Source: Christensenella sp. UBA4247 | Lineage (GTDB): Bacteria; Bacillota; Clostridia; Christensenellales; CAG-1252 | NCBI GenBank assembly: GCA_002395405.1 | Contig: DGWX01000062.1 | Span: forward strand, 1 to 56,933 | Length of the DNA: 56,933 nucleotides | Reading direction: 5' to 3' | Part shown: positions 7,728 to 56,933 of the stretch, one piece after another | Layout of the letters: each line of letters begins with the position of its first letter | Position numbering within the stretch: position 1 is the first letter of the stretch | The notes under the pieces: model-generated | Databases searched by the model: none | What the model saw: only the letters and a program-made list of their open reading frames with translations | Told to the model about the DNA's origin: nothing | Made by a program: the position numbers and the translations under genes

Positions 7728-7736
7728 ACGCTTTCA

Positions 7737-10700
7737 TTATTGCTCTTCCTTTTCTTCGCCGTCAAGGGAATCGGCGATGTTTTCGGGATCTTCCGCCGAA
7801 TTTTGCGCTTCGGACGGCGCTTCGGACGGCTCTTCCGCCTGCCCTTCGCCCGCGCTTTCGCCTTCGGAAACGGTTTCTCCCGTCTCTTCGGGTTCAGCCT
7901 TCGTTTCTTCTTCCGCGCCCTTTTCGCTCTCTTTCTCCGATTCGTCCTTTTCCCCTTTCTTTTTATTCTTTTTGGGCTTTTTGGGTTTCGGAGAGAGTTT
8001 TCTCTTTTTTCTTGCCTTGGGGATCAAGATGATCGCGACCACCGTTCCCGCCGCAAGAAGGAGAACGGCGCCTCCGTAGATCACGATCTTTCCGATCGTG
8101 GTTTTAATGAAAGACTTTTGACGGATCTCGAGTTTTGCGTTCGACACACCTTCTTTCGAGATATTTCCCTTAAACGCCGCGCCCGTATCGGTGGAAGTAT
8201 CGAAGAGGGATTCGCCGGAGTAGGCGTTTACAACGTCGATCTTCACGTTCGAATAATGATAGCTGCCGAGCGTTTCGCCCTCCGTTCTGTCTCCCGTAAT
8301 CGAAACGACGAAGGTTCCGTCCGCAAGGTCGAAGTAATTCTTGATCTCCTTGAAATCGTCGTAAGGATCTTCCGCGATCAAAACGTACGAAATGCCGGGG
8401 TCCACTTCGCCTATCACCTTTTCGGAGGGAACAACGCGAACGATAATGGACACGGGCGCGACCGTCACGCTCGCGGTAAAGGTTGCCTTAACGTTATTAT
8501 TCGCAGAGATCAAACCAAGCTCGTCGATGGTCTTTTTGCCGTCGGAAGGCACGAGCTTCGAAAGCTTGTTATAGGAGATTTTAAGCGCGGACGCGATCGC
8601 GTCGGAGGCTTCTTTGTCGCTGCTGCCCGCAGGAACGTTTATGAAAGCGCCTCCTTTTTCGATCGTAAAGCGCAGGATCGCCTTGTTATCTCCGTAATAG
8701 ATCGTATTAAAGAATTCGAGATCTCCTCTTTCGATAGACGCCGAAGTAAACGAGCCTTGATCGTCATAATATCCGACTTCCGCTTTGATGCTGACCGAAG
8801 CGGGATTGATGATAAAGTTACCCGAAACGACCTGAATGAAATAGTTGTTAACGAGGCTTTCGTCTCCCGTCTTCGTTGCTTGCAAGGCAAACGTTCCGTT
8901 GATCTTATAGCTGCCGACCGTAACCGCGTTTTGGACGTCGTATCCGGTGGACACGACCTTGATCTCGCTCTTATCCTTTTCGAGCAGTCCTTCCGTTTTG
9001 AAACTGACGAGGGATTCTCTGAAATCGCTGACGCCGTTATACGTTTTGGTGAAGTCGGAGATCGTTACGGTCAGATACTTCTTGGTAACGATGACCATTC
9101 GTTGTCCGCTTTGCATCGTTACGCCCGAAATACATTTGATCGCTTCGTCCGATACGAGTTCCGCGCTGAACACTGCGTCATATTCGCCTACGTTCAATAT
9201 CGTTTCGCTGTCAAATCCGACGATGGCTCTTACGCCGACATCCGAAAGCGTCGCGTCTTTCTTTTCCGTTCCGAACATCGCAAAGTAAAGATCGGAAACG
9301 GTAATGCTACCGTCGCCCACGATGGTTGAGTACTTGATCGAGCTGACGGGAGTTCCGTAATTGACCGTCGTTTTTCCGGGTTTCAGGCGAATGGCGACTT
9401 TCTTGATCTCGTAATAATATCCGCCCTCTTTAACGGATAGGATCTCGTAACGATCGCTGATATCCTCGCCGTTCGCGTCCGTAACGCCATAGCGAAGAGC
9501 GTATCGACCGACGCTCTCTCCTTCTTCTCTCGAAAGAACGAGTTTATGCGATCTTTCCACGAAGGAATTGCCCTGAGAAAGCGAAGCGTAAATGGTTTCG
9601 TTCCTCTTTCCGAAGAACTTGACGTTCCTATCTTCATCCGCGACGACGTACAGTTTTTTCGGAGTAACACGCAAAACATTCTCCGCTTTGAGGATCGCCT
9701 TGGCGCTGCCGCCCTCGATCTCGTAACCGTCCGACGCCGATACGACGTAATTCTTATTGCGATCGGAGAAGAGGCATACGAGGTCGTAACGTTCTTCGGA
9801 AGGCAAAAGCGTTCCGCCTGCGTTATAAACGATGGAATCGAAGTACAGTTCGTCTCCTTCTCTCATCCCCTTATGCGAGCAACCGCTACTGCATTCCGTT
9901 CCGTCGCAAACGTGATATTTCGGGCGGAAGGAAGAAGAGCCGTATTCGATCTCGTCGAGATCGAAGAAGATCTTAACTTCGGTAGGACGAACGATGTAAT
10001 ACGCTTCTTTACCCGTCATGACAACGTTATAGTTCGGAAGCGCGAGGTTGTCGCCCACGATTATGCGATACGCTCCCGCGTCAAATTCATTCGATCTTTC
10101 GCGCGTCATCAAGGTGGAAGCGACCGCTTCGTAGGCGGCTCTGTCTTTTTCGAGAAGTCCGCTCTTTACGGTCGGATAGAATACGGCGGCTCCTTCGAAT
10201 TGCGCGAGATAATCGACTTCGATAGAGGAAACTTCAAGTTCCAGGGTCGCGCGCTCGATATTCGCGCGGATCAAACCTTCCTGCGCGGAAGAAATGGATC
10301 CGCCGTCAAAGACATAATCGAGATAGGCGAATTGATTCGCGCCGCTTTCGTCAAATTCGGGATCGTAAACGAGTTTTGCGTCTCCGCTGACATATACGAG
10401 CTTTCCTTGTTCGGCGTTTGCGTCCTTAAACGAGAAAACAATTCCCGAAACGGATACGAACGTTTCGTCGTTTCCTTTGAAGCCGTCAATGATCATACTG
10501 CCGGGGAGAAGTTCCGCGCGGGTCGTTCCGTCGTACACTTTATCCTTGATCGCCAAGCTCTTAAAGGTCAACTCGGCGGGAAGGATTTCAAGTCCCGAGA
10601 ACGCGTCGCAAAGCTGTCTTGAACCCGCGTGTACGCGATAGGAAATCAGGTAGTTACCCGCATGATACGGCAGTCCGCCTACGAGCGGCGGAGTCGCCCC

Positions 10701-13700
10701 GAGCGGCGAATAGGAATAAACGACGCTGTAACCGAGGCTTTCGGCGCGCGATGTGATCGCGCTGAGAGAATCGGTGGACGATGCGATCGCGGAAGCGCGA
10801 TAGGTCTCGGAGACCCATTCCATCGGAATGGAAGAAAGTTCCGCGGTCAAAACGATATCGTAATGTCCCGCCGTCCAGGAAATCGAATACTTCCAAGCGT
10901 CGGAAGCGTCTTTCGAAACGGTCTCGAACGCGGTCGTTGCGCCGAGGCCCCAGAACATATAGCCGGAACCGATGTTTTTGACCTTAACTTCTATTTTGTT
11001 TCCGGTAGCTTCGAGTTCATCCGCGAAATACACGCCGAGTCCGCTGAAAGAAGGCATATTCGCGCTTTCGTTCTTGATTTCGTCTTCGCTGACGCCAATA
11101 TAACGAACGCTGACGAGATAGCGGAGCGCGAAGTACGCCGACACGGGCTCGCTTCCCTCGTATATCGATAACGGATCGCCGTTCTCATCTTGATTTACTT
11201 CCGCGTCCGAAGAATTTTTCCAAGCGCGAAGCGCGTAATTGCCGAGCGTGGTCGCTTCATAACGAAGCGTTTCGCCGAATTGAACGGAAATCGTTCCTTC
11301 GCCGTACACGTTCAAATACGCCGACTTTTCTTCTTCGTGCGTTTCGGAAAGTGCGCCGTGATAAGCGATGACCGCAACGCGGGAAATATTCTCTCCGAGA
11401 ACGGCGGAAGAGGAAAGCGAAACGCCTTTGAGCGCGAGCGCCACGCCGTTTATCGAGCCGCCTTCGCCTAAGGTAATGATACCGCTCGGGAAGGAGCCGC
11501 CCGTAATCGTGATCGTCCTATCGCCCGAGATCGCGCCTCTAAACGAGAGAAGAGGCAGCAGCGTATTGCCGTCCGCCGCGAAGTCGGACGTTATCGTGAT
11601 CGACGAACCGGCGAGGTGATTCGGAGAAACTTCGTTTGCGCGGGCAAGTTTGTTGAAATCGGTTTGATCGTTGACGGAAGAAGGCGCGTAAACGGCCTCT
11701 TTTTCCGTCTCCGAGAGAGATACGATCGCGCTGAAATAGAACGCGTCGTTATCCGATCCCGTAAAGACGGGCGTTCCGTTCGAGAAGGAAGCGTTCAGGA
11801 TCGCGCCCTTTTCGTAATACACGAAACCATAATCGCCCGCTTCCGCGGTAAGGCTTGTTTTATACGCTTGATCGAAGGTCATAACGATCGCGCCCTTTAC
11901 CGAGTAAGCAGGAAGGATCATTCCGGAATCGGACAAGGAAAGAACGATATTTTCGAGTTTCGCACCCGCTACGGAAAGTCCGTTGTAACCTTTCTTTAAG
12001 TACACGACGCCGTTTCGGAACGTACCGTCTTCCGAGCGCGCCGTAAACAAATTCCCGTCGCCCATCGAGTTGATCGTCAAAGAGTATCCCGCAAGATCGA
12101 GAACGATCCCGTCGAAATAGATCGGGGTCAAGTTGCGGCGAACGGTCAGATCGCCGGCAAGCGAGATCACGCTTCCTTCCGCAAGCGCGCCTTCCGCCGT
12201 CAGGTAGCCGAGATACACGAGTTCGTCTTCCTTCGCGATCGAACGAATGCTTCTGACCTCGAATTTTTGTCCGGAAGCGCTTTCGGGAGAAGTATAGAAT
12301 CCGGTTCCGTAGTTATAAGCGCCGGGGAATACCACGTTCCCTTCGTAATCATACAAGCAAACGAAATGACCTACGAGCGGCATAAATTCGAAAGAAACTC
12401 TCGTACCTACGCCGGTTTTTTGATAGGTTACGGAAACGAAAGTATTGAGGTCCGCGCGGATCTCGTTTACGCCGATGAGGCTACCCTCTCCGACCGCGCT
12501 TTCCTTGCTTCCCGTTACGAGCCAGCAATTTCTCATTTCGCCGCCGTTTATACCGCAAAGCGCCGAGCCGCCGTCAAAGGTGGGATCGGCAGACGAAGCC
12601 AAGACGACGACTCCGCTCATCAAGCCTCTGTTTATCCTTACAAGGCAGGGGCTCGCTCCCTTTACGATACAGCCGCTTTCAAATTCGAAAGCAACGTCTT
12701 TCAGAGCGCCGTATAACGTATGGATCAAGGGGGCGGTATCCGCGGCAAAGCGGATCACGCTGTTTATGCCGCCTTCGATACTGCCTTTGAACGGATGGGT
12801 TTCGCTGCCGATGGTCATGAGCGAAGAGGAAACGGTAAATCCGCCGTCCGCGACGCGGAAGGTAATACCGTCGAAATCAAACGCGCCGAGAACCGCCGTC
12901 GAGAGGCGATCGAGATCGTTCGCGGAAGAGAGCGTGCGATTCACGTAATTCAGCATATAGCCGTTTCCGCTTTGCGAAGAAAGCTCCAATCTCTTCTCGC
13001 GGAAAACCGATCCATGAACGGTTCCGAGCTCGCCGAACCAGCCCGCGAAGACCTGAGATTCGGTATCCGCCGCCGTGGCGCCGATCGAATCTCCGAAGGA
13101 ATAAGCGATCGAGCCGAGTCCGTTCCCGTAAATAATGGAGTAGCTTTCGCGATAGGCCGCGATCGATTTGAACGCTTCGTACAAAGAAGCGTTCGACGTT
13201 TCAAAGTAAACGTTCTTCGCGCTGACGGGCGCTCCCACGGAGAGGACCGAGCGGTTTTCCACGAACACGACGTTTTCCAAGTTTACTTTCGCCGTGCCTT
13301 CGAAAATCTTAACGCCGGAAGCAAGGTTCGAAAGATCCATTCTGACGTTTTTGATCGTGCCGGCGAAAAGTCCGAGCGCACTATCCGTAAATCCGCTTTC
13401 GAAAATAAGCGAATAACCGTTGCCGTCCAAAACGCCTTTGAACGCATTCGTCTTGAACCCGGAAAGAGGTGCGGGAGCGGTGACGTCCGCGCCGAGCGTA
13501 AAGGTTACGCCTTCGCCCGTATAGCCGAGCGCGGCTGCGTCGGAAAGAACGGTCAATTTATAGGTCGTGTCGATCAAAGTGGAAACAAATTCCGCCGTAT
13601 AAAGGTCTTTTTCGCAGTTCGAAGACGCAAAAGAAGGATCGGAAGAGAAGATCGAACCGTTTCTCGTCCAACCGATAAAGATCATCGTTCCGTCCGTTTC

Positions 13701-26426: not shown

Positions 26427-26507
26427 ATTGTTTACCTCTGTTTCTATTGTACTATGTCCGTCGGGCATAAGTAACTTAAATATACTTAATATTATTATTT
26501 ATATGCG

Positions 26508-26526: not shown

Positions 26527-26535
26527 GCCGTTTTG

Positions 26536-53500: not shown

Positions 53501-56500
53501 TCCACGTAATTATTTTCGTCATAAGCGAGTTTTACGCCTACGTCGATTCCGTCGATAAAGTTTACGCGAAGAGACGGCGTCAGTCTCGGGAGCGAATCGC
53601 CGAGTCCGCCCACGCCGAGGATACTCATTACGCGCTTAAAGCTGTCTTGCATTAGCGTAACGCCGATGCCGCGCTTCGTAAGATCGATGCGATCGAAAAG
53701 CCCGATGACGCCGTCAAGCGCGTCCGCCTCTGCCGCGCTTTCCGAAACGCAGTGCGAACAGGTGCAACCGTAAGCGCAGCTCGATCCGTCGCAATAAGCG
53801 GCATTCAAACATTCTTCGCAGTTACAACCGCAAGAAAGATTGGATACTTTGATACGGAATTTCGGAACGTCCATTCCGTAAACGGCGCCGTCGCTTGCGA
53901 GAGTGGAAAGACCCTCCGCGTCCACGTACAAATACAATCCGTCGAAATAGACTCTGACGAGAAGATCGCCGTCTTTCAAAAGCTCTATGCGCGCGTTAAA
54001 ATGCAACCCGTCCGAAAGATCGAAATTCGAACTGACGCGCAAAACGAATCGGCCCGAGAAATCTTCTTTAACGTCGAAAGTCAGCGCTGTGTTCATCAAT
54101 ACTTCGCCGATGCTGTTCGGAACGATCCCTCCGAGCTCTTCCATAAAGTCGGTAAAATCGTACTGCATATCGGAGAAGGCGTAATCGAGATCCGCTTCGA
54201 ATTGAACGTAGATCGAATCGAGCGAAGTCGCGTCGCGGTATTCCCTGCCGGCGCTCTCATATACGCTTTGCGGAACGACCTCTCTTCTTGCGAGAGTTGC
54301 GGAAATATCGGATACTTTCATAGCCACGTATGGGTTTTTATATCCGAGCGCGCCTTCGGAGGTATCGAAAGCGATCTTCGCGCCGATCTCGAATCCGTCC
54401 ACGAGGCGAACGTAAACTTTGCTCGAAGAATCGAGATCCAAAACGGTATCGGTGTTCTTATCGTCCGTCAAAAGATCGATCAAAGTCGCGATAAAGCGAT
54501 CGGCGAGAAGAACGGAGATCTCGTCTCCGATATATACGCCGCCCATCATTCCGCCTACGATATCCAAGATTTGCTTACTCGAAAGCGCGCTCTCCGCCGC
54601 CGCGGGGATCGAGGGCGTTTCTCTTTCCGCTCCGATTGCGGTTCGGAAGAAATCTTCGAGCTTGATCTTATACATAAACTTCGGAAGCGTCGTTCCGTCC
54701 GCGCTGATAGAAAGCCCCGTTGCGTCCACAAACACGGCGCTTTCGCCCGCCGCGTATTCTCCGTAATAAAGCGCGATCACAAGGTCGCCCAAAGCGCCCG
54801 ACGCGTCTTGCTTATAGATCTTTACGGCAAGCTCGACGTTCGCAAGGTTCAGTTCGACGTTCGCGCCTCCGAAGAAGTTGGACATTTTGATAGGATCAAA
54901 AGCGATATTCGCGTCCACTTGAATATCCAGCCCGCCCGAGATCGGCTCTTTTACTCCGAGCACGCAGGCAAGTTCGGCAACGATATTGCCGAGCGCGTCG
55001 CCGAGATTGACTTCTTTTAAGCTGCCCGTATCGCCCGAAAGGGATAAGAGGGCGGAAAGGGAAATATTCGAAAATTCTTCGAGCGAAGAATAACCCGCCG
55101 AAGAAAAATCGTCTTTATCCACGATAAATTTCGGTCTGTATCCGAAAGAAAGTTGATCCAAAGAAACGCGAATAAACGTATCTTCGGTTAGTTTAACGTC
55201 GGCGTTCAGGAACAAGCCGAACCCGGAGATCAATCCGAGTTCCACTCTGATCGAGCGGATCGCCACGTCCACGCTGGACAAGGTCTCGTTTACTCCGTTT
55301 ACGATACTTGCGAACAAGTCGAATTTATCTTGCGCGGACTTGATGTCGGCGGCATAATCGGCGATCAATTGCTCTTTTGCGCGAAGAAGGATCTCTTTTC
55401 CCTCTTTCAACCTGTCGAGCTTGTTGTTCTCTTCGGTGATCCTGCCTTCCAAGCGAACGATCTCGCCTATTCCGATACTGCCCGACGATCTACCGTCCGC
55501 AAGTTGGCGTTCGAGAGCGGCGATCTCGGCTTCTTTTTCCTCGATCTCCTTCTGTTTCGCTTCTATATCCTTCTCCACGGCGGCGACCGACGTGTCGTTC
55601 GCTTCAGCGTCGATGGCTTTTTTAAGATCGTCCGACGCGTCGCGAGCCAAGCCTTCCACAACGGACAAAATAACCGAACGATCCATTGTTACCGCAACGG
55701 ACTTACGCCCGCCCGGACGGCGTTCCATCGTGTTCAAAACGCGAACGATAATATCGAACACGTCAAGCTTCGCGTAACTTCTGTCTTCTCCCGCCGCCGC
55801 CACGTAAGCGTACGTTCCGGTTTGCGTAATGTTCGAAAGCGCCTCGTCATAATCGTCGCCCTCTTCTCCGAAAGTTTCCACGATAAGCGAACGGATCGCT
55901 TCGCCTTCCGCGGTCGCTTCGCTCGCCGTTCCGAGAAGCGATGCGAGCGTTTCGGTGACAAAGGAATTCAAAACGTCCGCAACGTTCAATCCTTCGTACA
56001 CGAATTTCGGGAGATTCGCGTAAGAGAAATCCACGTACAGGGAATTTTTGGTCCCTATATAATAAACCGTTCCGAGAAGGACGTTTCCTTTCGTCGTAAC
56101 TTCATAAAGGTAAAGCTCTATGTAGTTCTTTTCGTTATAATTCCAGCTGATCTCGGCGTTTACGTCCACATACAAGCCGATCGTTCCTTCTCCGAGCGTC
56201 AACGTACGCTCGCCGAACGATCCGAGCGACGAAAGCCCGAAGAACTCGGTCAGGACGCCGCCGATCAAATTGTCGATCGTTACCTGCTTTTCGCTTCCGT
56301 TTTCAAGATCGACTTTGAAAGAAACTTCGAAGTTCGTAAGCCCGAACTTGCGGTAATCGGTAAACTCGGGGAACACGATGGCTTCCACCTGACGGGAATC
56401 GGAACCGTAATACTCGTTGTCCATAATGAAGTCCACGGCGAAGGTTTCCGCTCCGTAACCGAGATCCACGTCGATATTCGTCAGCTTTCCGTCCGAAACG

Positions 56501-56933
56501 TTGATCACGAAATCGCAGGTAATATTTTCGAAGGTATAGTTCGTGATCGTGGTCAGCGTAATGCCGAACACGGAAGTTAAGATGCTGTCCACCCGGAATT
56601 CGGCAAGCAAAGTTTTAACGACGGGGTTGCCGATCAAGCTCATGACGGAATTGAGCATTTTGTTGAGATCGGTCGTAACCGCGATCCTCGTCAATCCGTC
56701 TTTTTCGGTCTTGGTCGCGCTCTTAACGGCAGAGGAGGTAATGTTGTTTACGAGAGATCCGACCGATGTATTCAAACCGGGGATCGAAATATCCATAACG
56801 CCGTCGATCACGTTTACGACTTTATCGCCGAGCCTGTCCGCAACGTCCAGCGCGTCTCTCAAACTGAAATCGTCCAAATAAACGCTTGCTCCGCCCTTCT
56901 CGTTCGGAACGTTGAGATAGAACACGCTGTTCA
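26536..56933 (-). CDS. Giant surface protein 2 (at least 10,131 codons, 5'-truncated by the window): beta-rich module array with Cys-rich linkers, an Ig-like domain array and a C-terminal Listeria-Bacteroides-type repeat
   Basis: Uninterrupted 30.4-kb ORF. The track 'M' at 56925 is an internal GTG, and the two codons upstream of it (56926..56931, Asn-Ser) are also sense codons, so the true start lies beyond the window. The TGA stop is at 26536..26538. Confidence 0.9.
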   Translation of the reverse strand, partial: NSVFYLNVPNEKGGASVYLDDFSLRDALDVADRLGDKVVNVIDGVMDISIPGLNTSVGSLVNNITSSAVKSATKTEKDGLTRIAVTTDLNKMLNSVMSLIGNPVVKTLLAEFRVDSILTSVFGITLTTITNYTFENITCDFVINVSDGKLTNIDVDLGYGAETFAVDFIMDNEYYGSDSRQVEAIVFPEFTDYRKFGLTNFEVSFKVDLENGSEKQVTIDNLIGGVLTEFFGLSSLGSFGERTLTLGEGTIGLYVDVNAEISWNYNEKNYIELYLYEVTTKGNVLLGTVYYIGTKNSLYVDFSYANLPKFVYEGLNVADVLNSFVTETLASLLGTASEATAEGEAIRSLIVETFGEEGDDYDEALSNITQTGTYAYVAAAGEDRSYAKLDVFDIIVRVLNTMERRPGGRKSVAVTMDRSVILSVVEGLARDASDDLKKAIDAEANDTSVAAVEKDIEAKQKEIEEKEAEIAALERQLADGRSSGSIGIGEIVRLEGRITEENNKLDRLKEGKEILLRAKEQLIADYAADIKSAQDKFDLFASIVNGVNETLSSVDVAIRSIRVELGLISGFGLFLNADVKLTEDTFIRVSLDQLSFGYRPKFIVDKDDFSSAGYSSLEEFSNISLSALLSLSGDTGSLKEVNLGDALGNIVAELACVLGVKEPISGGLDIQVDANIAFDPIKMSNFFGGANVELNLANVELAVKIYKQDASGALGDLVIALYYGEYAAGESAVFVDATGLSISADGTTLPKFMYKIKLEDFFRTAIGAERETPSIPAAAESALSSKQILDIVGGMMGGVYIGDEISVLLADRFIATLIDLLTDDKNTDTVLDLDSSSKVYVRLVDGFEIGAKIAFDTSEGALGYKNPYVAMKVSDISATLARREVVPQSVYESAGREYRDATSLDSIYVQFEADLDYAFSDMQYDFTDFMEELGGIVPNSIGEVLMNTALTFDVKEDFSGRFVLRVSSNFDLSDGLHFNARIELLKDGDLLVRVYFDGLYLYVDAEGLSTLASDGAVYGMDVPKFRIKVSNLSCGCNCEECLNAAYCDGSSCAYGCTCSHCVSESAAEADALDGVIGLFDRIDLTKRGIGVTLMQDSFKRVMSILGVGGLGDSLPRLTPSLRVNFIDGIDVGVKLAYDENNYVDLTVGNLGVQFAHRDLGLDRSQYGELNFGSFGKVSAEVSGSLTVSFEQGNEKLAALVRQFVDGAKFGIDVRRMTRWDLSFDLKANVDLTEMDFSDLSTVSAVVPTAEIYFALFEDDRILGTRELMLALYFDGPSSTAYLRAPWLGVEPISYAVDIDALFLSEVAAAFESLSEAEETAESLGRLAVLMLDQNGISVSISGALIAGVISAMELNVGSLDFEKLIESVKVGITLDGGVSVNLGAVLPGAFVNASIDGIVLGLDKSLSLSSYMYGNGLSKEDYVFLGRGTDLDLSRVSAGITVTLDLETGTFRYDATDSIRSVLDMLKLDDLIGDIASELSLYLGADGNVGAALNAPLTIRLDVNADLASFEFLQFALSVKGGDGSEYAYVAYDSETDTAYVSLGLIGLPEIKITGTSLMEYIRGAISSAEASEPVLSCGCNCDECLQNGTCGKSAATATCSSSCTCTCHYPDLECGCMNPACKTLQSCFHEENGEQVLNEGCDCRVHARKSVLEIINDVVDYVYLDGTVGVVGVVTKANSLAVVTSLLGLKLILPEFVVSANVNLEDVAVDIGILAKDGDDLHLDLGIGIGNLAVGFKSRDLFGDLSRFRDWRELSVGFSVAADVTFSMDGEYAKTITNFVSENIEGEALKVQIGNNTAEDLVTMALGLELAANVTLNGLLEPDAELWLSFYLKTGDGELYGRTSSLISLYYNSAEETQFGKEEALYISGSAYGAENAVRISGLGLHGAVLDLIAPYLQRMQPSAAESEGNGTLEETSGLLAKILQVVFSEEDGLVVSADGGALDLVLSLMRLGSYRLSALVPPTDGLKATLSSDGLSVVLQMNENSFLEVAVHRASLFFDSSLTERTEWKDKIIGNEGITAGASALGEAGAFHIAAEMSVEAKTGATMNEQGEIIGEHVASTEGGYLGALEFLLTSDAQNHAHYSVKVELAASGLKAEGLNLASLKGSALKDAIGKMVSGLKLQATITISDLLVTREGDTVYENGKPVLGVYYDYDETDIVYVRVPAFDLSLQIPNLVDLASILSSLIPEETAEAGGTTEGGFEAPDILKFIDAISLSDTAIAIDLSSQILSRVMLLAGIELTLPEIYSTVTVGNLSSVANSVNEGIGVHVASALLPEFMFDLKIGSFDMYLEETASDLLEPMTDFFGNLQNYATVDSLQANVQFEADLSFGLGENVSNGDGNAWRFESLLSDLDLNFGIGILENLKGHYKLAINASVNVAEGIENLYGLEIYLALYSVDNGAYEKEFSVYYGKGVLGLNFEPLLGVDPFELDLDLGSIVGGIFARNSASAAEDGDPVNAGKKDFASLVSALSGLVSVYVGDRSVALSVAGTVLHTALVFLGYENYFPVTAEGVTPHSTEAMNAIAEGDYTVRLNYDNDTSETFTYSHSYARKKLILSLTGTNVASIRLLSRENGYDRTFNYESEWEKIFDIDARAGTLTWAKSEAFAALKLGTYDVIVVKTNGQTSKFKMTKKISSYTYKEGLHLTGKKVESLVILGAGEAGADIILTPEATIATGAIGDYFAINHYVGGLTLSLGEGIKANLSLKEDTYLEVSVEDVSISMTSAGVERKDKNGEVEIYTDNIKSVRFDFSVDLTARAAKGLSIDLDEAVGSLFDSLLGGLLKDADIAFNVDESIDLDYTLDISANVKFDDNTVDLAHSELSVAIIDRDDDSEVFSVYYVGTEEPTGALYVNIPYFDLKLKINEIDFVSMIDRLGVFSLPSAAAEEGEESGSVSTGALILSMLFGVDLYQNGVQVKFASDLLNIAAKLAGLESVSLPSLKDESKLRLYIDKDIDKLLELDLVFDTNANSSLSLVVNQPEITLNGKMEYKSNLGFFESISEAGSISIDLSASVEIDSSEDNNIDVGSLASLLLAKANKEEERHLLIKTDKATTTYSLNASVILSVSGVYNDLLGLIDGGTLSVSGMLRSLLKDLYAHVSFERMTSVDGTITSEGSLFEAYFYNNCLYVDLSYLGMPKIALPVNLADLIPNGGSAAAESGLLCGCTNPECVSHGGSFDYSHPCRKNALGDRYDGCSCSYCSSSLDETLSLIYNARGLLIKMESAMFAKALSLLDIDATLDMSFNARLHKEDGVSATLTFKGVDGVGDPAYTSVALSVEKPEIVLGGLINGLIEDTSDYGYLNDLEYLHVSFSLDLKALFKNSAEAGVYYMDGFLSELFGGERLPVSLLGDIQGDITLTVAGNVHLKDVNRSEILLRITSEGEDQIVLYYGGEYDLVAYLPWIDDTFNMTFDFDLSKLLGKELTETINGLSERISSAIYNAIGTDAIAAAEEEGENEEEGSSDVLDVALSVIESISLTSAGRIVVHFAGDVVERFTDYMLGSTLSLGDMEYLELYADLIHQEIGLETELRNGANIPNNELSLKLHDYGVALVQKDLGFDKSLYNTTDDYSYLHFKLTGDVSYSFPDGVYDFGGLIKTVADNVNIPVTFQGLRGDFKLNVEMKICVEEIKKSEILIELVWNDNYVVQAYMDMLQGEIYLYLPWFDVQKVLIKNVDTSFISDLLPSASTSEVSAAESSGLASSAAARYATLVARIIDGIVITDGSNPSYGEKGAIVNVSNNFLDVLLSEFASALEIELPIDFTGVKLAIRKNLMTFDLDFENEEQDGFISGEFRIKRFGFTEVNIRPEVTQNVTEFTTLLDYAEESPLVLEYVYVDTELYLGAEFIEQRLNLDDIFMYIFGEGFALKSEVINAAFRLHISGNLNVQRFERSELLIDLYMTSRGVENLFIRGYLVGLDQAIYIDAPLLGLYGVKVTGVDIGKLLGGSNESGESETTADLDCGCDCAECVKNGGCYGTVNGVLTRLCDSNCNCSHCVVPGCTCIHPVCVAMGSCYDENGVKRCDCDCGCTRLSCGCNNMECYLNGSCVGSIKHCEEGCDCTCCVVKGCGCDCEECVQNGSCYDSNGKKICEGDCDCSCTSLTCGCSDPACQARGGCYVNGIRACDGITCGCDCTKLEDGCTCAKCELNGGCYDASGRKLCDEKCSCEHCVLPCGCTNPYCVSIGSCGEFGVYCKDYGEECCSCHAPEKCECNNAECLEKGCVAGYRNVYQVAGETGAVYYDKENDTYYRYVAGEKGAERSDLTNAERATLVSDEATSLPKIVRIEAIHRAGCEEEKCTCSLVYRLACYCRNPECILHGQCIKTFKLIDGKVTPICYCDKNDLFSVGGLVRDAVTKVEFVGMHSGTNTALTNGDWKKYMTIVDGTIAFNDANDYLLAMDDYAWTVKIYTGSSSPFRTLTYKIAGASCVYLNECKCHTGLLACYCTNPNHIKAGTCPMNCEYCNGACRTYYSNSISGIFDNVTFTPAGLSFRSSDTFLASVFYLISGNTIDDIEVPKIAVDFALNYITREKTVQVSGITAQNVTKVELIGKSGTTTLTGSEIASYMTISNGAITFSDGNEKLSALPDYAWTVKIYTSGTSPVATFEYEMYSGTSHDFLANLALRANIAIEQSLNGSYTGNYSTIGIGFGGLTIRSGKQMMDVRDVRDPSVAADFTTYQPMDRLQKITAKAEMHIEIHPENTEVELGPMLNGLFPGIDTLMQIVVDATTWTENTLLNVAVEISLDMNNLERTQIMLTVTKGANPTASSVLAFLFYDGEDEAPKLYAKIPALGIKGTWFGGVTIEDFLSYTVDPLPCGCTNVLCVDNGSCYDEYGVRICDGEDCGCKCAAFECECNCASCVKAGVCDGTRCEANCACDHHASSAAESGALICGCAEEECLVRGSCTPTCPTNCDGSCHFTTTLVVPLSCGCTDPVCLERGSCFSTCKNCGDGSCHDKETAEEMFNSTEDIIFGIAKHITSITISEAAGVQAEFKPSLITNILIALGYDMELSGIDSIGTLRVGFKVDALSDISINAEVDFRNDADADKPSYIRMTIDNIKIDLNKNLLEVPTDLVGSLATYSELTEDSYVNFAFSGEMSFDTSKTVIALGNTISAILGEQVDFNLAFTDGRATFAYKIAGNISLGSIDVKGVLAGKTLDVKKVVQEADLLFEVIDKTNDKTFLSMYVTGGYAYVNLGIIKSAPPVCFDVLSLIETADEEKISTADGDQKKTYDVDYYSDVPELVTIGRMYHYQSGGSPEFRVALKGYAVEKVVIVNNSTDEEITATGDLIDKYFTFTYAGTSSDPRYGDTIVEMPINKEVEALAKDGNNYYTVYIVTEGGAVSLQLKVASADAYVSPSNATIAMIIGVLGNVTFKLDEIVVNLNKNAMKIFEEFFGMSLNAPNADAAVRLGLDDTIYLGATVGISDENGKGVEVDLSLGSFSIEIGKVNLLSLLDAKNSMKSYVQSGVLDTTAYSDVMNDLTTAYASLTADITLNASGDSASSVSGKNSSIFYPNGALFTFGDTFAEMIGNVLVNLGLDSSLNGTYEMTLRAYLKNTDFDTLTLSDLNAYLQISEKNGNSYFEVLTIYFDGMYLYLNLNPEYFPYVSVSSTLIDLDSAIDFWSEDVIVGAAAQAEEDSATNGFNIASVMKLVSGATIGKGKIALNLSENFVGGLLAMLLPEFEGVSLLLDDTYVQVNLLDGEVELGLTTAGVFEPEKYVVFGASSYVGVDYVSQNEAYLKVFNGDAIADLSGSYLLTATLSGGTVRYPINVDDMKKTYLYTDKHVWSEMISVQTNRFRINTGKYESGVYKVTFTLTDGTTRSASATCLLSGTASYVTLNGINPNNIASVRVELSYLRIPLSVSETGVTASTVARAVELTGIETVKISGKSEFDYFFKSVSGNKFTFSKQALSSLGGKSYTAYFFGKTTAVGVKGYTVQTGSDVTITASGITEANLGKIVFVRNFTSSEKAPEFQSYAVNKTEDETIFLDRKGNPFKNYTADQTFSTKIVLKDIEIAPELPARYKSGASAYATGGVYLTNEQKKYTYNYETGAVSSVNGLALSDYVNWREQEYYLTTTLLIDASFKENTVGYSLFGNKTVGLGSVIDEVIGVLRMTESGRLNKTISLKIELKLVAEDVWASSVLFTFAFDDVEAAGAKCAYVYYEGKGENVTSYLYINLDAFELGSYRIEADIVSPIVNAFERARSVDTYSSLGAIVLPCGCSHPDCVEAGSCITYAFGKRVVRCAGTDCTCSHCKLKCGCTDQSCLLNGGCYKDGVRICDGENCGCDCTYLECGCTNQACIDHGGCMSEGGYLLCYVCTSVYCQRSPNHYCVFDEYCDFAGQSEREQCTCRHCMLSCGCTDQECIDNGSCKGENGVLLCANKECECDCKDEAVLPSGGSGSTSLPKSVAQYTPYIDSLVSAIQLGNKMSMIVLNPNVFNNLLLMMGYETYLCNDNFAYIKAELKATTAQGMRDTYIKLASENDDYSVGITLTRFKAESVVSSAGASYTSFNNAHNFASKLSGYLKYPTIDEMEIHLSTSIDLAISGGVETVTIAMKSLFEKSLGLTENDTANLIVDNGEETTRLNLRISLEMFLDLADSSKTELLLEIAQVNPSTNQTTLLIGLYYLNANETAYAALPMLGLSGLKVTGLDLSGVLADVFDISFWNDYTKSSDSAAEAAAAEAPAEAAAASDGVKLKNALWLLLGIDTEDEEAIPSVLQNYIDLINNTGSDMKTDYGTAARFILSMSNSQIGVGLNVSMLMLLIDMLGVNIPSSILGPIEDYKKTFKAELYYDNNDSASPSGWSITLNGYLNKKVSGDDFGTTGSNWVGVTAKVNGAKLRVGSPTNRIGINQRYDSSVSTHIYLPDSKNASDTYAGKSGGTFTYYVGARNTNFDGYKQLENYSDIMQLDVLNFKLNATLDFAVAANTGSGLSLDAYRNQTFEFFEALVECILGSEKGSVTVKRNAASTWSFNINIDLALNFKNFSKTCFKIKVNFSDGYNNLTLLGIYYDGSTLDEDGGSLYLDLSDLGFVKLRASGINLEQTLSKVLDADLKEGGLTIMKDVLKVESIGEIIEKLIREATNVTEDEEESEEDGEESSSAESDKEYTIDNANLTLTLKALAAGSKPQTPYEASLYLDAGMLERFLGLFNIQEGVVSQAIDRVGLPKTIGATLKLKLDEGIDEIGITIDAPERLGTNTRSNTISFAVSSFSIDYTSSNFMALGIDTSEYSALPLGGAIGLANHNGQSWLGSLLESVVDGLYPPKVETDNDDEFRPDSMRIKITQNMDYTDKVGTVVSGQKRSVLLQLSRADSKFIHAIRATLFDVLTDYTDTPGIVSIGKDIGMIAAENYASGIASLLSDALQIIAGHIDRVSVFYSDSDLYLYIQFKISIIFLGDYRPGIDFKVASIDISDMVSGKTVSKYDKPEPLDEEADDEDAIKAAKEHPITGIELNLGYGMIDETTGTIMEKSKQDSVLQSAYGQNANSGIAKTVSSVRIDIDALALKGILDSLSEMIAEFTGTPASVPAQMTYATYRGILGMLKGAIHDAIDPGNTVTRVLVRLLNGAIDAAISSVLGDQVIHVLAKILPFITLKRGDTAYVLVEFDSNRYGGTSLFRKILLRMANNRTGEFYQIVLTSTGIRLGVVDENSVTMDFDGSVVRTLGDVFNIDQNGDGVADYLEDLPDKAKVKYVSGTLEPHDEEDTVSIVWQDSTFLVDPTGDVIQGSTPNASNAVPGSIARPSDGSDKIAITYYLLGSVLNYNKEIPLQVPYSAIRLPKYAEINGVWTPIIKGENLELPLTITPDKVKDLEDYLPKIINVYMTNGYGENGMYYAFDGTEAGGQVVTWDVSEVSDSYAGGKYNLHLTYGTGDTANYHVDIQIIVTPQPISEILGFRWTENGKQVSGNFLTFAAGDHPTLPDRVTAEFGTMGVHEYEIRWTESDFTSGYAGATYYTDAYIGNSEIGYHLYPHIPIVFKSELIVDYKIDESYTFEFDPYKAAVDGLPESKSLYSYPRYVELAFEGETDESGERIYKKTLVDWNLENVDNTYLGSNSSYATFRYGNENIGYQFFRVFVKIKERVFTASMLDTTALDIVTDVDPMYLTRTGDIVVAGIKGSSRIEGYDPTDDNNYPKTVKVTYDAGSNIAYTFSDKDVEWNASSVSVKYNAGVQYVSLKVGNELGGYQTIRLPITIEDRSVTAIDLTSVRAKYEFDPYEENAVDAKWYPENTSGGNKATVVFSSQNSGQYPLTWDLSEVDQSYKGGTFTAYARVGTDSAGYQLVPFTVVVKSKIIKNLQIEALSFDPYDESINPLSMDDYTDASGATVHSPYVKSAIAVFKDDSTHTFSNLIWDITEIGKIWNYKGGSCFVTVKFGNEYGGYQTYSVPVTVACREIASVELNEENTIIFDPYGGVDPRLEANYYERVNVTFSNGEKGVVDVIWDISNVINGYRGFKSASGSDLFEEFPVAIRAGNSVCGYQTYTDIKVRILNREIVGSSITEQKLDVYSDNDLASVVTVTFKDGTERSMNVSWINENYRTDINSIDFPDWDDQDFTADARIGDAIGGYQIITVPVKIYKRLATALYIDNVKVSKDKANVTDDLEIDYERYRIEIDPYENSYDLPSTVRLAFNDGTDTYINAVWDMRNVKIDLEGGVYGGYNPDTHGAILKIGNARTGYINVEFMVVVKNRVLKTVSVGSGRYVPAIYSYDVQTGQKGDLISAIVNDAYLDSAFPNNVYLEFRERTGVNALTSSAPMIKMISNWNLEYRKDANGNNVPVKASFSLGSEKAGDRTYSFDVLTVFRSLTVPEDVVIEINPYQISLPQTLTVNVGGAVGYNFETGKYYALTPDVCGCTCASCVERGYCGTVDPNTGVLTSDCDCGCSCNAIRSTFRLDWSKASIDYNYRGSYREDVLVYIGNSSCGYQPGRIKVRVLDKTVQSVSVEEFEIDPYDYSTLPQSTSVTFTDNTSGELKLTANISNAVKAEGNDAIGFFQGGLYTITAYLGDRTGGYQAQRIKLRVKDRTIKGLLIDGVNVMEEGFTVKTYGEIGGLTKKPDEMLTVLFEGGDSATLKVLWSSVAIDYGYQGAAYTKLGLLVGNAEGGYQRVILDARVERAVALSAVAEEGFLYNTLLGAAGLPENVVVAMDKNSYLSAMTLPAVEWSNTFVVDRENGVYRSSVKVGNEVSGYQWIPVTLPLSEITLLTVQSRVFEIGAYDLIRTDEEGRLLDGNGNLFTLLSEVGEGVYSELYVKLLETPAYSYYGGLFSVKAEVGNELTGYMSETDDGNEILLSVRVNAQLIRTLYVEDNGLKNIVEYYNLPLPQNPYAMPNVKKGDKLVALMQDDSFTELSVVGVYFTQDGVRREGVSYSGGSNIVYEIVVGDDAHGTQTFSYTISVAAKVIDSVPELSDMWVDPFSYTLPKEVTVYFKDGDSASLPALYVANGVNFDSSLVRYTGGSFSVTALVGDDMGGRQSVPFKLNVRQSLVTGLYSDTLITIDQLEARVRLPESLVLTVRNGQGTKTITCSVENGLIDNGNWTVALKDGKYVLVAQDGKTGSWIFENVDLTYTGGTYYAIYLYGNERSGYQKVRVPVEVVEKKIDYEKLQYVSARSSGGVTLAPFETVIRAAIGEYFELPTELWITFEDGTGTEVDVTWNTEGVDLTKAGVYTVSATVLEQTVSVTIEITDDRLVYSDDVVTLFVLPRGGAYSLPSSIRQTIYVKSQAGGFTPQSELAPEMKIDWGVLPSSSVEDSYELEGVISNGTFRWIKKVKLYFHSNYVTFIRTLAPSEAFGSEEGERRAKVEVGSSFTASDLPEILIAVYDGAAEITKTTAANWRVSYALDAEGNILPINGEINDLRVLDTSKAGYRYVLTGEILDRYGREVTFANGENLTYTVEVSENVNIAEMYAVSQNEFIFGETRHIELSLAVGVSIQSIEYLKDGEIVGGVSYDPITGALLADSGYPTDAGEYLARICLVGYEKTAVVESPYIVNAKDVTSEIVVINTLQRYKGGSETYELTYGTRSGGVALRAVYSLIEGEAGSLLGGLPCAVGTYRAVISASGLNYTGSVTVELKVTESITVNFYRDGAKISSTEVGDGMYLAGVPTPTKSGFVFAGWYYDEEGANAFAVSEKVSASNPYVQALTLNLYAKFVSAE
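26539..26769 (-). other. C-terminal Listeria-Bacteroides repeat (Flg_new-type) domain of giant protein 2
   Basis: ITVNFYRDGAKISSTEVGDGMYLAGVPTPTKSGFVFAGWYYDEEGANAFAVSEKVSASNPYVQALTLNLYAKF. The [GY]-x-F-x-GWY-x-D...LYAKW/F pattern is the hallmark of this repeat. Confidence 0.7.
26770..27290 (-). repeat. Two MBG-like units preceding the terminal repeat
   Basis: GYPTDAGEYLARICLVGYEKTAVVESPYIVNAKDVT and GGLPCAVGTYRAVISASGLNYTGSVTVELKVTE resemble the AGxY...NY...I-x-P MBG pattern also seen in giant protein 1. Confidence 0.45.
27300..33960 (-). repeat. Array of roughly 24 tandem Ig-like (Big_4-like) domains of about 90-100 aa
   Basis: Recurrent pattern [LP]P-x-[TS]V-x-V-x-[FY]-x-DG...V-x-W[DN]...Y-x-GG-x-[YF]...[VI]GN-x-x-GGYQ-x-x-x-[VI]P[VI]-x-V-x-x-[RK]. 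By eye I counted at least 15-17 GYQ-type endings (for example GNELGGYQTIRLPITIEDR, GNEYGGYQTYSVPVTVACR, GDAIGGYQIITVPVKIYKR, GNERSGYQKVRVPVEVVEK). There is also a canonical-looking Big_4 unit (LPTELWITFEDGTGTEVDVTWNTEGVDLTKAGVYTVSATV). Confidence 0.6.
30334..30435 (-). repeat. Cys-rich module locus 9 (1 copy embedded in an Ig-like domain, visible aa 8831-8864)
   Basis: CGCTCASCVERGYCGTVDPNTGVLTSDCDCGCSC. It is flanked by Ig-like domain sequence (...LPQTLTVNVGGAVGYNFETGKYYALTPDV | module | NAIRSTFRLDWSKASIDYNYRGSYREDVLVYIGNSSCGYQPGRIKVRVLDK). Confidence 0.8.
37795..38304 (-). repeat. Cys-rich module locus 8 (4 copies, visible aa 6208-6377)
   Basis: CGCSHPDCVEAGSCITYAFGKRVVRCAGTDCTCSHC / CGCTDQSCLLNGGCYKDGVRICDGENCGCDC / CGCTNQACIDHGGCMSEGGYLLCYVCTSVYC...CTCRHC / CGCTDQECIDNGSCKGENGVLLCANKECECDC. 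Confidence 0.8.
42097..42510 (-). repeat. Cys-rich module locus 7 (4 copies, visible aa 4806-4943)
   Basis: CGCTNVLCVDNGSCYDEYGVRICDGEDCGCKC / CECNCASCVKAGVCDGTRCEANCACDHH / CGCAEEECLVRGSCTPTCPTNCDGSCH / CGCTDPVCLERGSCFSTCKNCGDGSCH. Confidence 0.8.
43552..43671 (-). repeat. Cys-rich module locus 6 (variant copy with a His at one Cys position, visible aa 4419-4458)
   Basis: CVYLNECKCHTGLLACYCTNPNHIKAGTCPMNCEYCNGAC. CYCTNPNH aligns with CGCTNPEC in other copies. Confidence 0.7.
43936..44073 (-). repeat. Cys-rich module locus 5 (variant copy, visible aa 4285-4330)
   Basis: CEEEKCTCSLVYRLACYCRNPECILHGQCIKTFKLIDGKVTPICYC. Confidence 0.7.
44284..45063 (-). repeat. Cys-rich module locus 4: about 7.5 tandem copies, 63 Cys in 260 aa (visible aa 3955-4214)
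   Basis: CGCDCAECVKNGGCYGTVNGVLTRLCDSNCNCSHCVVPG / CTCIHPVCVAMGSCYDENGVKRCDCDCGCTRLS / CGCNNMECYLNGSCVGSIKHCEEGCDCTCCVVKG / CGCDCEECVQNGSCYDSNGKKICEGDCDCSCTSLT / CGCSDPACQARGGCYVNGIRACDGITCGCDCTKLEDG / CTCAKCELNGGCYDASGRKLCDEKCSCEHCVLP / CGCTNPYCVSIGSCGEFGVYCKDYGEECCSCHAPEK / CECNNAECLEKGC. The Cys count was done by hand. Confidence 0.85.
47332..47445 (-). repeat. Cys-rich module locus 3 (1 degenerate copy, visible aa 3161-3198)
   Basis: CGCTNPECVSHGGSFDYSHPCRKNALGDRYDGCSCSYC, preceded by GGSAAAESGLL. Confidence 0.75.
52000..52200 (-). repeat. Cys-rich module locus 2 (2 copies, visible aa 1576-1642)
   Basis: CGCNCDECLQNGTCGKSAATATCSSSCTCTCHYPDLECGCMNPACKTLQSCFHEENGEQVLNEGCDC. Confidence 0.8.
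53749..53832 (-). repeat. Cys-rich module locus 1 (1 copy, visible aa 1032-1059)
   Basis: CGCNCEECLNAAYCDGSSCAYGCTCSHC, read directly from the reverse complement. It follows ...VPKFRIKVSNLS. Confidence 0.8.
55312..55629 (-). other. Predicted coiled-coil insert of about 106 aa (aa 433-538 of the visible ORF)
   Basis: DLKKAIDAEANDTSVAAVEKDIEAKQKEIEEKEAEIAALERQLADGRSS...RLEGRITEENNKLDRLKEGKEILLRAKEQLIADYAADIKSAQDKFDLF. The segment is heptad-like and rich in Glu/Lys/Ala/Leu. Confidence 0.5.

Follow-up and report, generated by a model that had tools for sequence, protein, structure and literature searches.

We report a pair of giant genes that, as far as can be read from their sequences, fairly probably form a conserved cassette, its two products being giant surface proteins, fibres or adhesins, that are exported by Sec and tethered to the membrane. 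The window, by which we mean the whole stretch of 56,933 nucleotides that was analysed, comes from an uncultured gut or rumen Clostridia bacterium, and the two genes take up 86% of it. As the initial annotation had described, they are co-directional and lie about 109 nt apart; both are on the minus strand:

7737..26426 (minus strand): gene A, complete, 6,229 aa; ATG at 26426, with GAGG before the start
26536..56933, the window edge (minus strand): gene B, at least 10,131 codons, cut by the edge; full protein 10,269 aa

An alternative in-frame ATG at 26468 would extend A to 6,243 aa, and the visible part of B consists of 10,131 full codons read without a stop in the frame from 56931. There are zero stops in the 16,360 codons of both genes. 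Base composition gives probabilities of about 1e-126 and 1e-204 for such open frames, and the longest open frame among 100 shuffles had 276 codons; an origin by chance, already dismissed in the initial annotation, is therefore excluded. Long plus-strand ORFs within A and B were considered as antisense genes and rejected as shadow ORFs. The sequence of gene A is found exactly in NCBI, ENA and Logan, and an independent 99-kb contig also gives a call of 6,229 aa for it.

Three independent assemblies are 99.97-99.99% identical to the window, with no gaps over 14-17.6 kb. What independent assemblies have in common with the window is, in A, the 10 kb at its 3' end and, in B, 679 nt at its 5' end, the latter covered by a metagenome contig (L093) that is identical to the window end at 679/679 nt. 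The giant ORFs hold no near-identical repeats, and no DNA repeat in them exceeds 88 bp at 77% identity. Over aa 1-4200 and 7099-10110, the homologues in other species (P0001, P0008, P0009 and P0038) are colinear with B. Given the near-identical independent assemblies, the lack of long DNA repeats and the colinear homologues, an assembly error is unlikely. Between the window and a sister species A shows 64.5% amino acid identity and a dN/dS of 0.22, and between sister and sister (dS 0.068) a dN/dS of 0.19, to be compared with 0.05-0.09 for Dgt, DnaG and SigA. For B against a homologue from another locus (L001), pN is 0.32 and pS 0.69, and dN/dS is at most about 0.22. Both genes are under purifying selection, as had been claimed, yet they are evolving 3-4 times faster than the adjoining housekeeping genes.

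Protein A has the layout of an exported protein held by its C-terminus, and the hydropathy scan, with an N-terminal hydrophobic stretch at aa 9-30 and a helix at aa 6114-6136, bears out the signal peptide and membrane anchor that had been proposed for it. Its features are the following:

26301..26426 (minus strand): signal peptide, aa 1-42, with a KRRTR n-region and a hydrophobic core; cleavage probably after AEA, judged by eye
12465..26165 (minus strand): GLUG-type region, aa 88-4654, about 13 full module copies plus partial ones, from an internal HMM
10383..10580 (minus strand): YDG domain, aa 5283-5348; PF18657, 27.4 bits against a cut-off of 25
8814..9074 (minus strand): MBG_2 domain, aa 5785-5871; PF18676, 29.6 bits against a cut-off of 25
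8019..8087 (minus strand): C-terminal transmembrane helix, aa 6114-6136, from the hydropathy scan
7740..8018 (minus strand): charged tail of 93 aa, KARKKRK...KKPKKNKKK followed by an acidic stretch

The modules follow the consensus ...IGxExxPFxGxFxGxGHxI...GLFGxxxxGxIxN... (alignment A3). A profile built from 13 of them retrieved 138 proteins, with E-values down to 4e-23, nearly all annotated with PF07581, so that A is assigned to the GLUG proteins at profile level, by homology to PF07581 carriers. As a single sequence A stays below the GLUG threshold (best 13.1 bits against a cut-off of 20.5, E 0.14); its aa 1-1200 used as a single query found no homologue, only the module profile being successful, and a scan of metagenome contigs with an alignment of its N-terminus gave no match. 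AF2 modelled the module with pLDDT 85-97 over residues 20-190. Since a Foldseek search with this model returned no significant match, we describe the module only as consistent with a beta-solenoid; beta-solenoids dominate the list, which has IgA1 protease 6xjb among its non-significant entries. The MBG_2 domain sits in a membrane-proximal, beta-rich stalk (aa ~5280-6100), and it and the YDG domain place A in the MBG/YDG families. The tail, with 19 K/R and 29 D/E, is presumably cytoplasmic. Sortase anchoring through a C-terminal LPXTG finds no motif in either protein, there being none in B and only loose matches in A far from the C-terminus; A does have a hydrophobic segment and a basic tail, though without a C-terminal LPXTG.

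The N-terminus of B had been placed outside the window, and the overlap with contig L093 agrees: it puts the ATG 138 codons past the window edge, so that the full protein has 10,269 aa. These 138 codons, taken from L093, encode a lipoprotein signal peptide, MTKNLHTKILFVLLLCFVIALVAFAC / TPK, with a basic n-region, a hydrophobic core and a lipobox with the invariant Cys. Such a signal is present in every B-family member with an intact N-terminus, and B is a predicted lipoprotein on the strength of its signal peptide and lipobox. The hydropathy scan detected no hydrophobic segment in its visible part. The features of B, numbered from the window edge, are:

35017..56727 (minus strand): module core, window-aa 69-7305, at least 17 diverged leucine-rich alpha/beta modules of 200-300 aa each
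55282..55680 (minus strand): helical/coiled-coil segment, window-aa ~418-550, from AF2 secondary structure, pLDDT 70-90
53731..53838 (minus strand): single inter-module cysteine knot, window-aa 1032-1067, Cys positions conserved in P0001-P0003
51997..52206 (minus strand): cysteine knot, window-aa 1576-1645
43546..45069 (minus strand): main cysteine-rich block, window-aa 3955-4462, tandem knots of ~35-70 aa
42088..42534 (minus strand): second cysteine-rich block, window-aa 4800-4948, from an internal HMM
37792..38310 (minus strand): third cysteine-rich block, window-aa 6208-6380
27991..33567 (minus strand): Ig-like array, window-aa 7789-9647, 16 tandem Big_4-type repeats of ~100 aa each
26593..26766 (minus strand): C-terminal Listeria-Bacteroides repeat, window-aa 10056-10113, one copy

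The undescribed module makes up about 75% of B. Its copies, found by internal HMM iteration, are 16-25% identical to the first one (alignment A2) and contain up to 13.8% Leu. No match to it was obtained in Pfam, NCBIfam or the PDB, where searches by sequence and by profile returned nothing useful, and a scan of genome contigs with aa 1-400 of B also gave no match. The AF2 model of aa 1-1200 of B, built from 8 sequences, has a pLDDT of 41, with long beta-hairpins alternating with helices; within these 1,200 N-terminal residues the coiled-coil segment is the only part modelled with confidence. The Foldseek matches of the model were Rad50/SMC coiled coils only, and these were dismissed as coiled-coil artefacts. 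In view of this low confidence and of the artefactual matches, no fold is assigned to the module.

The second type of element in B is the cysteine knot, which in the main block follows the motif CGCxCxxCxxxGxC. Knot regions hold 187 of the 204 Cys of the protein, a 500-aa stretch from aa 4001 is 14% Cys, and the Cys positions are conserved in homologues. Speculatively, the knots would rigidify B, through metal binding or through disulfides, the latter being doubtful given the anaerobic host. Towards the C-terminus B passes into more familiar repeats. Big_4 (PF07532) reaches 95.9 bits against a cut-off of 22.1, and 1,000-aa pieces of B reach 54-60 bits, the matches falling in 5 and 2 stretches; the count of 16 Ig-like repeats is that of the internal HMM. 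The terminal repeat is recognised as Listeria-Bacteroides type by Flg_new (PF09479) with 34.8 bits against a cut-off of 27 and by TIGR02543 with 21.4 bits against 20.95, which was the only result of the NCBIfam scan over A and most of B.

A cell-surface location had been suggested for the two proteins, and it agrees with their signal peptides and anchors as well as with the Big_4, Flg_new, YDG, MBG and GLUG domains. Their cores are indeed different, with no BLAST or profile match between A and B. The initial annotation had also attributed to them an overlapping domain vocabulary of GW[YF] and MBG-like units, which could not be established and is at best below threshold: of the six GW[YF] sites in A, one is matched by Flg_new, at 16 bits against a cut-off of 27, the single MBG-like signal in B reaches 13.5 bits, also below threshold, and cross-searches with HMMs (A MBG against B, B Ig against A) were negative or below threshold.

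What ties A to B is their gene order in other genomes. The profile of the B module matches only 62 of 1.84 billion representative proteins, and B-type members of 6.5-7.9k aa contain 10-14 matched stretches. A protein of the P0012 type is present without change in 9 NCBI assemblies, some of which may come from cultured strains. We define the B-type family by a lipobox, several leucine-rich modules, C-terminal Ig-like repeats and a GLUG/MBG membrane-anchored gene directly downstream, all of which B possesses, with the partner gene also seen in L085, L086 and L087; no description of such a family was found in the literature. In all three other loci with a visible B-type 3' end, the next gene, 14-94 nt away, is a GLUG/MBG partner. 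In L085 the gene that comes 94 nt after the B homologue is colinear with A, at 28.5% identity over 2,753 aa. In L086 the two genes are separated by 14 nt, and the partner combines a signal peptide with MBG_2/MBG_3 domains and a membrane helix at its C-terminus; in L087 there are 90 nt between the genes, and the partner carries an MBG_2 domain. Both of these partners pass the MBG gathering threshold, and the partner heads are homologous to the A module (hhalign probability 94.5%, E 8e-8). Counting the window, the ordered pair of B-type and then A-type gene, 14-109 nt apart, occurs in 4/4 checkable loci, with protein identities between loci that fall to 29% or are visible only by profiles. The B/A length ratio is 1.65 and 1.67 in the two pairs that are complete. 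The spacer between the two genes in the window is:

26427..26535 (minus strand): B-A spacer, 109 nt, with a GC-rich hairpin after the B stop, without a U-run on the coding strand

Ahead of the A start it also has AT-rich sequence and the ribosome-binding site GAGG. The hairpin and the AT-rich sequence would allow separate transcription of B and A.

Several known giant proteins resemble A or B in part. Ebh of Staphylococcus aureus, a giant surface protein that spans the cell wall, is many thousands of residues long. It opens with a signal sequence, continues as a long rod of repeats and crosses the membrane once near its C-terminus, its cytoplasmic tail starting with a positively charged stretch; A has the same topology. 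The Ebh repeats (FIVAR/GA, DUF1542) are alpha-helical, and neither type gave a Pfam match in A; Ebh is not known to have a lipoprotein partner gene. Surface proteins with the GLUG motif (PF07581) include relatives of the ZmpA/B/C IgA1-protease family. Those retrieved by the A profile often carry PF09479, PF05342, SLH or dockerin domains, and all the relatives listed are shorter than 550 aa, in a search that may favour short proteins, whereas A strings together about 13 modules, is free of peptidase domains and has its anchor in a C-terminal membrane helix.

Among Bacillota, a likeness in gene arrangement is seen with Giant1-5 of Apilactobacillus kunkeei, consecutive co-directional genes for extracellular proteins of 3,000-8,000 aa with signal peptides, beta-solenoid heads and long imperfect-repeat arrays forming beta-sheet 'beads on a string', which diverge quickly and in which adjoining giants co-evolve (PMC12863079). 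Tandem giant surface-protein genes, repeat arrays and quick divergence are common to both systems. However, Giant1-5 carry DUF5776/SH3b-like domains for cell-wall binding at their C-termini and lack any lipid or transmembrane anchor, whereas B has an N-terminal lipobox and A a C-terminal membrane helix; DUF5776 gave no match to A or B in any Pfam scan, and the B module and its Cys knots have no counterpart in the description of Giant1-5. Gut Clostridia proteins of 10,000-30,000 aa with Listeria-Bacteroides repeats, presumed glycan binders (West-Roberts et al. 2023, 10.1101/2023.11.21.568195), come from the same organism class and habitat, fall in the same size range and likewise contain these repeats. 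Those giants are described as consisting largely of known repeats (RCC1, Listeria-Bacteroides, YG, dockerin, LRR), unlike B with its ~75% of undescribed module, and a pairing of a lipoprotein with a GLUG protein is not among the features that we saw reported for them. The Omnitrophota giants (10.1101/2023.11.21.568195) contain many transmembrane regions together with divergent SecA/DEAD domains; they resemble A and B in extreme length and beta-helix-like repeat segments. In contrast, A has one membrane helix besides its signal peptide and B a signal peptide only, the hydropathy scan giving two hydrophobic segments in A and none in visible B, and neither protein matches a SecA DEAD domain.

We think that A and B probably work together on the cell surface, since very distant relatives have the same pair of genes. 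For physical cooperation between them the one argument is that their adjacency is conserved in four loci. In the arrangement that we propose, B would be lipidated at Cys26, with its N-terminus fixed on the outer side of the membrane and its Ig-like and Listeria-Bacteroides end distal from it, while A would be held by its C-terminal helix, the MBG stalk projecting the GLUG heads outward. The two proteins would act jointly as a long surface fibre or coat by which the cell attaches to glycans, particles or other cells. Three quarters of B can be called a fibre only by assumption, because the core has no recognisable fold and an AF2 pLDDT of 41.

Alternatively, A and B might be independent giant adhesins, each working alone, and their adjacency that of a surface-protein gene island, a reading that we find rather unlikely. 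It would suit the lack of sequence similarity between them and a spacer with a hairpin and an AT-rich, possibly promoter-bearing stretch, and A. kunkeei indeed has tandem giant surface-protein genes without a shown interaction (PMC12863079); the same ordered pair in all four checkable loci despite deep divergence, and the scaling of lengths in the two complete pairs, argue the other way. That scaling, a ratio of ~1.65 over a five-fold size range, would be explained if the chains were assembled side by side from the same membrane, as part of an undescribed Clostridia surface organelle in which A and B were obligatory subunits and B had a new fold and metal-binding Cys knots. This more ambitious proposal is tentative, and we hold it to be unlikely. 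An improbable reading is that B is a conduit or transfer device, whose amphipathic leucine-rich modules form a groove for moving lipids or polymers, with A as membrane partner. The leucine content of the modules, the alternation of beta-hairpins and helices in the low-confidence model, the membrane tether of B and the ECF transporter genes that adjoin the pair in two unrelated loci would all accord with it, but the model is unreliable, no similarity to transport or lipid-transfer families appears in Pfam, NCBIfam or the PDB, the distal end carries typical adhesin-type repeats, and no ECF gene is seen beside the pair in L086.

Two further readings have little left in their favour. A link to cell-wall degradation has been drawn for giant proteins of predatory bacteria (10.1101/2023.11.21.568195), and A and B could be offensive giants of the Omnitrophota type or polymorphic toxins, which degrade or attack other cells; with no multiple transmembrane regions and no SecA/DEAD-like, hydrolase, peptidase or toxin domain in either protein, this is very improbable. 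That the ORFs are assembly chimeras or decaying pseudogenes is hardly credible and has been largely refuted. Giant repetitive genes are prone to mis-assembly, and the homologue in L001 carries a frameshift and that in L085 an in-frame TGA at a conserved Cys position, but independent assemblies agree over the shared stretches of A and B, near-identical DNA repeats are lacking, the order is colinear across species, and a dN/dS of ~0.2 goes together with uninterrupted reading frames.

Few gene products of the microbiome are as poorly understood as the giant surface proteins of anaerobes from the gut and rumen, which are usually broken in assemblies and labelled 'hypothetical' by annotation pipelines. 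This locus supplies a complete, cross-validated predicted lipoprotein of 10,269 aa, three quarters of which is a module without a described relative, from a family that is rare. It also supplies a testable rule, that B-type lipoproteins accompany a GLUG/MBG membrane-anchored partner. Should A and B form one structure, they would represent a new route to very long appendages without LPXTG/SLH anchoring on these proteins, and a handle on rumen or gut attachment. The Cys knots of B would add a new type of extracellular Cys-rich repeat in an anaerobe.

Downstream of A, the neighbours are those given in the initial annotation, a small membrane protein and then dgt, dnaG and sigA:

7003..7686 (minus strand): 227-aa polytopic membrane protein, ECF-transporter S component-like, starting ~50 nt after the A stop
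6943..6965 (minus strand): intrinsic-terminator-like hairpin plus T8, closing the unit of giant gene and ECF-S-like gene before a promoter-like site of dgt

The 227-aa protein scores 35.6 bits for the ECF S family PF12822 (cut-off 30.7), aligning to profile positions 1-168 of 169, and has no match in NCBIfam; its gene is probably co-transcribed with A. None of 80 Dgt loci of other Clostridia (up to 60% identity) has an ORF over 1,606 aa nearby, for which reason we judge the position of the giant genes beside dgt-dnaG-sigA to be incidental or lineage-specific. The synteny check that had been suggested for the two giant genes and the small membrane gene thus came out in two parts: the B-type/A-type pair recurs in L085, L086 and L087, and the small membrane gene with the dgt-dnaG-sigA neighbourhood is conserved only in the sister species and absent from the 80 more distant Clostridia loci; in the sister species the 227-aa protein also follows A, with 61% identity.

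The two giant co-directional ORFs described in the initial annotation are confirmed on the minus strand, where they occupy 86% of the window with a spacer of 109 nt between them. The genes and elements discussed here are the following, L093 being a metagenome contig that overlaps the window edge:

26536 to window edge, minus strand: gene B, giant lipoprotein, stop at 26536, 10,131 full codons without a stop
within 26427–26535: GC-rich hairpin (CTCGCGCAAGGCGCGCGAG) directly after the B stop, without a U-run
7737–26426, minus strand: gene A, 6,229 aa, ATG at 26426 preceded by GAGG
7003–7686: S-component-like ECF gene (227-aa membrane protein), directly 3' of A, also in the sister species
6943–6965: sole strong terminator, after the ECF-S-like gene
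2326–2958 and 854–2629, minus strand: trmK-like (Methyltransf_18/TrmK), NIF3 and Zn_ribbon_9 genes, downstream of sigA
L093 355–1212, just past the window end: gene for a 285-aa lipoprotein, with a terminator of its own, upstream of the B promoter-like site

With the in-frame ATG at 26468 as an alternative start, A would have 6,243 aa. Base composition puts the probability of open frames this long by chance at about 1e-126 for A and 1e-204 for B, and none of 100 shuffles gave an open frame above 276 codons. In a DNA self-comparison of the window no repeat exceeded 88 bp (77% identity) and the internal protein repeats are just 25–48% identical, so that there is no substrate for repeat collapse or mis-joining. 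With the 227-aa downstream protein as lead, three independent assemblies were reached (ENA ERZ28612963, ENA/NCBI ERZ1756110 and Logan SRR5322622), which match the window at 99.97–99.99% identity over 14–17.6 kb with no gaps. Gene calling on a 99-kb contig of an independent assembly also gives A precisely 6,229 aa, and the exact A sequence is found, as a singleton cluster, in a collection of 15 billion proteins. B is colinear with homologue fragments from other species: P0008 (B 2–3165, 47% identity), P0009 (2096–4200, 54%) and P0038 (7099–10110, 29%). For these reasons an assembly artefact is an unlikely origin of the giant ORFs, and we give almost no weight to their being an artefact or pseudogenes. 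Long plus-strand ORFs inside both giants (e.g., 40924–43698, 30991–33585 and 18360–20525) were rejected as genes; they are shadow ORFs, since all 11 checked (up to 924 aa) share codon register with the sense frame and TTA, CTA and TCA make up a scarce 0.35–0.53% of sense codons in the giant genes.

The N-terminus of B had been placed outside the window, which holds: an exact 46-mer of the window edge matched contig OCTW011201616.1 (L093), identical in 679 of 679 overlapping bases and reaching 1,827 nt further, and the start lies 138 codons past the edge. Full-length B has 10,269 aa. Its N-terminus, MTKNLHTKILFVLLLCFVIALVAFAC followed by TPK, is a lipoprotein signal peptide, and the start is preceded by GGAGG and a promoter-like TTGACA-18-TAAAAT (11 of 12 matches). 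The 285-aa lipoprotein upstream had no Pfam match and is 46% identical to the product of the gene upstream of the B homologue in locus L001 of another species (L001 886–1767).

The features of A are the following:

aa 1–42: signal peptide
aa 88–4654: GLUG-type modules of ~160 aa, about 13 full plus partial copies (internal HMM)
aa 5283–5348: YDG domain near the membrane helix (Pfam, above threshold)
aa 5785–5871: MBG_2 domain near the membrane helix (Pfam, above threshold)
aa 6114–6136: single C-terminal membrane helix
C-terminal 93 aa: tail beginning KARKKRK, then acidic

The module consensus of A is ...PFxGxFxGxGHxI...GLFGxxxxGxIxN...; the Pfam Glug match is weak (13.1 bits, below threshold), and a profile of 13 copies retrieves 138 proteins, almost all with PF07581 and often also with PF09479, PF05342, SLH or dockerin. 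AF2 gave pLDDT 85–97 at residues 20–190 of one module, and Foldseek with this model returned no significant match, beta-solenoids, including IgA1 protease 6xjb, dominating the list. No LPXTG motif was found in A.

The features of B, numbered from the window edge, are the following:

69–7305: leucine-rich modules of 200–300 aa, at least 17 diverged copies
about 418–550: long helical segment
cysteine-rich knots, motif CGCxCxxCxxxGxC, with 187 of the 204 B cysteines
7789–9647: 16 Big_4-type Ig-like repeats
very C-terminal end, after the Ig-like repeats: one Listeria-Bacteroides repeat

The leucine-rich copies are 16–25% identical to the first one, and sequence and profile searches with the module gave no match in Pfam, NCBIfam or PDB. 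In an exhaustive HMMER search (E ≤ 1e-3), the module profile matched just 62 of 1.84 billion representative proteins, 18 of them at E ≤ 1e-30. Complete B-type members among the 62 have 6,529–7,881 aa with 10–14 matched module stretches, a lipobox is present in all members whose N-terminus is intact, and the sole source name retrieved was 'carboxypeptidase-like regulatory domain-containing protein [Clostridia bacterium]'. Homologues of the first 1,200 aa of B (AF2 pLDDT 41) number seven, all partial, three from Clostridia/Clostridiales MAGs (NCBI) and four from ENA. Knot cysteine positions are conserved in B homologues. The L001 homologue has a frameshift within a knot, and that of locus L085 has one in-frame TGA (9998–10000), aligned exactly to a conserved Cys of a CGCxxxxC knot, which may reflect an error in sequencing, a nonsense mutation or a codon for selenocysteine.

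Purifying selection, claimed earlier for both giants, is upheld by the substitution ratios, which indicate that A and B are constrained. In the sister lineage (L088, NCBI GCA_024685775.1, 'Clostridia bacterium'; L089, ENA ERZ27317913) the order A, 226-aa membrane protein, dgt, dnaG, sigA is kept, the A orthologue being complete in L089 (6,308 aa) and ending at the contig end in L088 (5,753-aa call). For A, dN/dS is 0.22 between window and L088 (last ~2,900 aligned residues, 64.5% amino acid identity, dS near saturation) and 0.19 between L088 and L089 (97.7%, dS 0.068); window against L088, it is 0.07 for Dgt, 0.09 for DnaG and 0.05 for SigA (89%, 82% and 91% identity). B against its L001 homologue has pN 0.32, below pS 0.69. 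The giants thus evolve 3–4 times faster than their housekeeping neighbours, as is usual in surface proteins. The last 3,000 A residues (L088/L089 1–9058 against window 7737–17400) align with about 470–500 gap columns, which implies gain and loss of modules or linkers among close lineages. Record labels (SHIW14, STEW19, LIUQ22, ruminant-MAG-like locus tags) suggest a rumen or animal gut origin of the lineage.

Synteny of A and B was checked in three other loci with a visible B-type 3' end, and the ordered pair recurs in all of them. In L085, the B homologue has at least 9,296 aa (29% identical), and 94 nt further on begins a partner that aligns colinearly to A (28.5% identity across 2,753 aa, at least nine GLUG modules). 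L086 has a 3,758-aa lipoprotein, a 14-nt gap and a 2,254-aa partner with signal peptide, DGNGYTV head, MBG_2/MBG_3, C-terminal membrane helix and KKKK tail; L087 (10001–19756) has a 2,042-aa lipoprotein, a 90-nt gap and a related partner (at least 1,179 aa, MBG_2 domain), the contig ending where its membrane helix is expected. Both of these partner heads are homologous to the A module (hhalign probability 94.5%, E 8e-8), so the ordered pair outlasts divergence down to the detection limit. Such retention favours a functional unit over chance adjacency, and speaks against A and B being two independent adhesins, which we consider unlikely. Partner lengths scale together in the two complete pairs (10,269/6,229 = 1.65, window plus L093; 3,758/2,254 = 1.67, L086 10001–28055), which may be a coincidence.

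As read from sequence, A and B are established as exported, membrane-tethered giants with adhesin-type domains, under selection and encoded by a conserved gene pair. We think that B would hang from its lipidated N-terminus and A would be held by its C-terminal helix, both together probably forming a long surface fibre or coat for attachment. A conduit-like role of the amphipathic B modules seems quite improbable, and an offensive giant protein more improbable still. The initial interpretation is partly supported: the ORFs, their selection and their pairing stand. The dgt-dnaG-sigA surroundings are judged not to be part of the A/B unit, as a giant ORF occurs at 0 of 80 other Clostridia Dgt loci. 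Among described systems, the tandem Giant1-5 genes of A. kunkeei (PMC12863079) come closest, together with the 10–30k-aa Clostridia gut proteins noted by West-Roberts et al. (10.1101/2023.11.21.568195); from the former, and from what the passages considered describe of the latter, this locus differs in its anchoring, its undescribed B module, its Cys knots and the conserved pairing of heterologous genes. Giant surface proteins are already known; to these the locus adds a B module family not described before and a two-gene rule that can be put to the test.

The terminator after the ECF-S-like gene and a promoter-like site before dgt make co-transcription of A with the small membrane gene probable, and B may belong to the same transcript. 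An AT-rich stretch of about 40 nt separates the spacer hairpin from the A ribosome-binding site, and this region could act as an attenuator, stabilise the RNA or harbour an internal promoter. In L086, the pair had no ECF gene in view beside it. Two unrelated loci have ECF-transporter genes beside the giants, that of the window and sister species and L087, where a full CbiQ/ABC/S module (6520–9735) lies just upstream. The trmK-like/NIF3/Zn_ribbon_9 order is also kept in the sister species.
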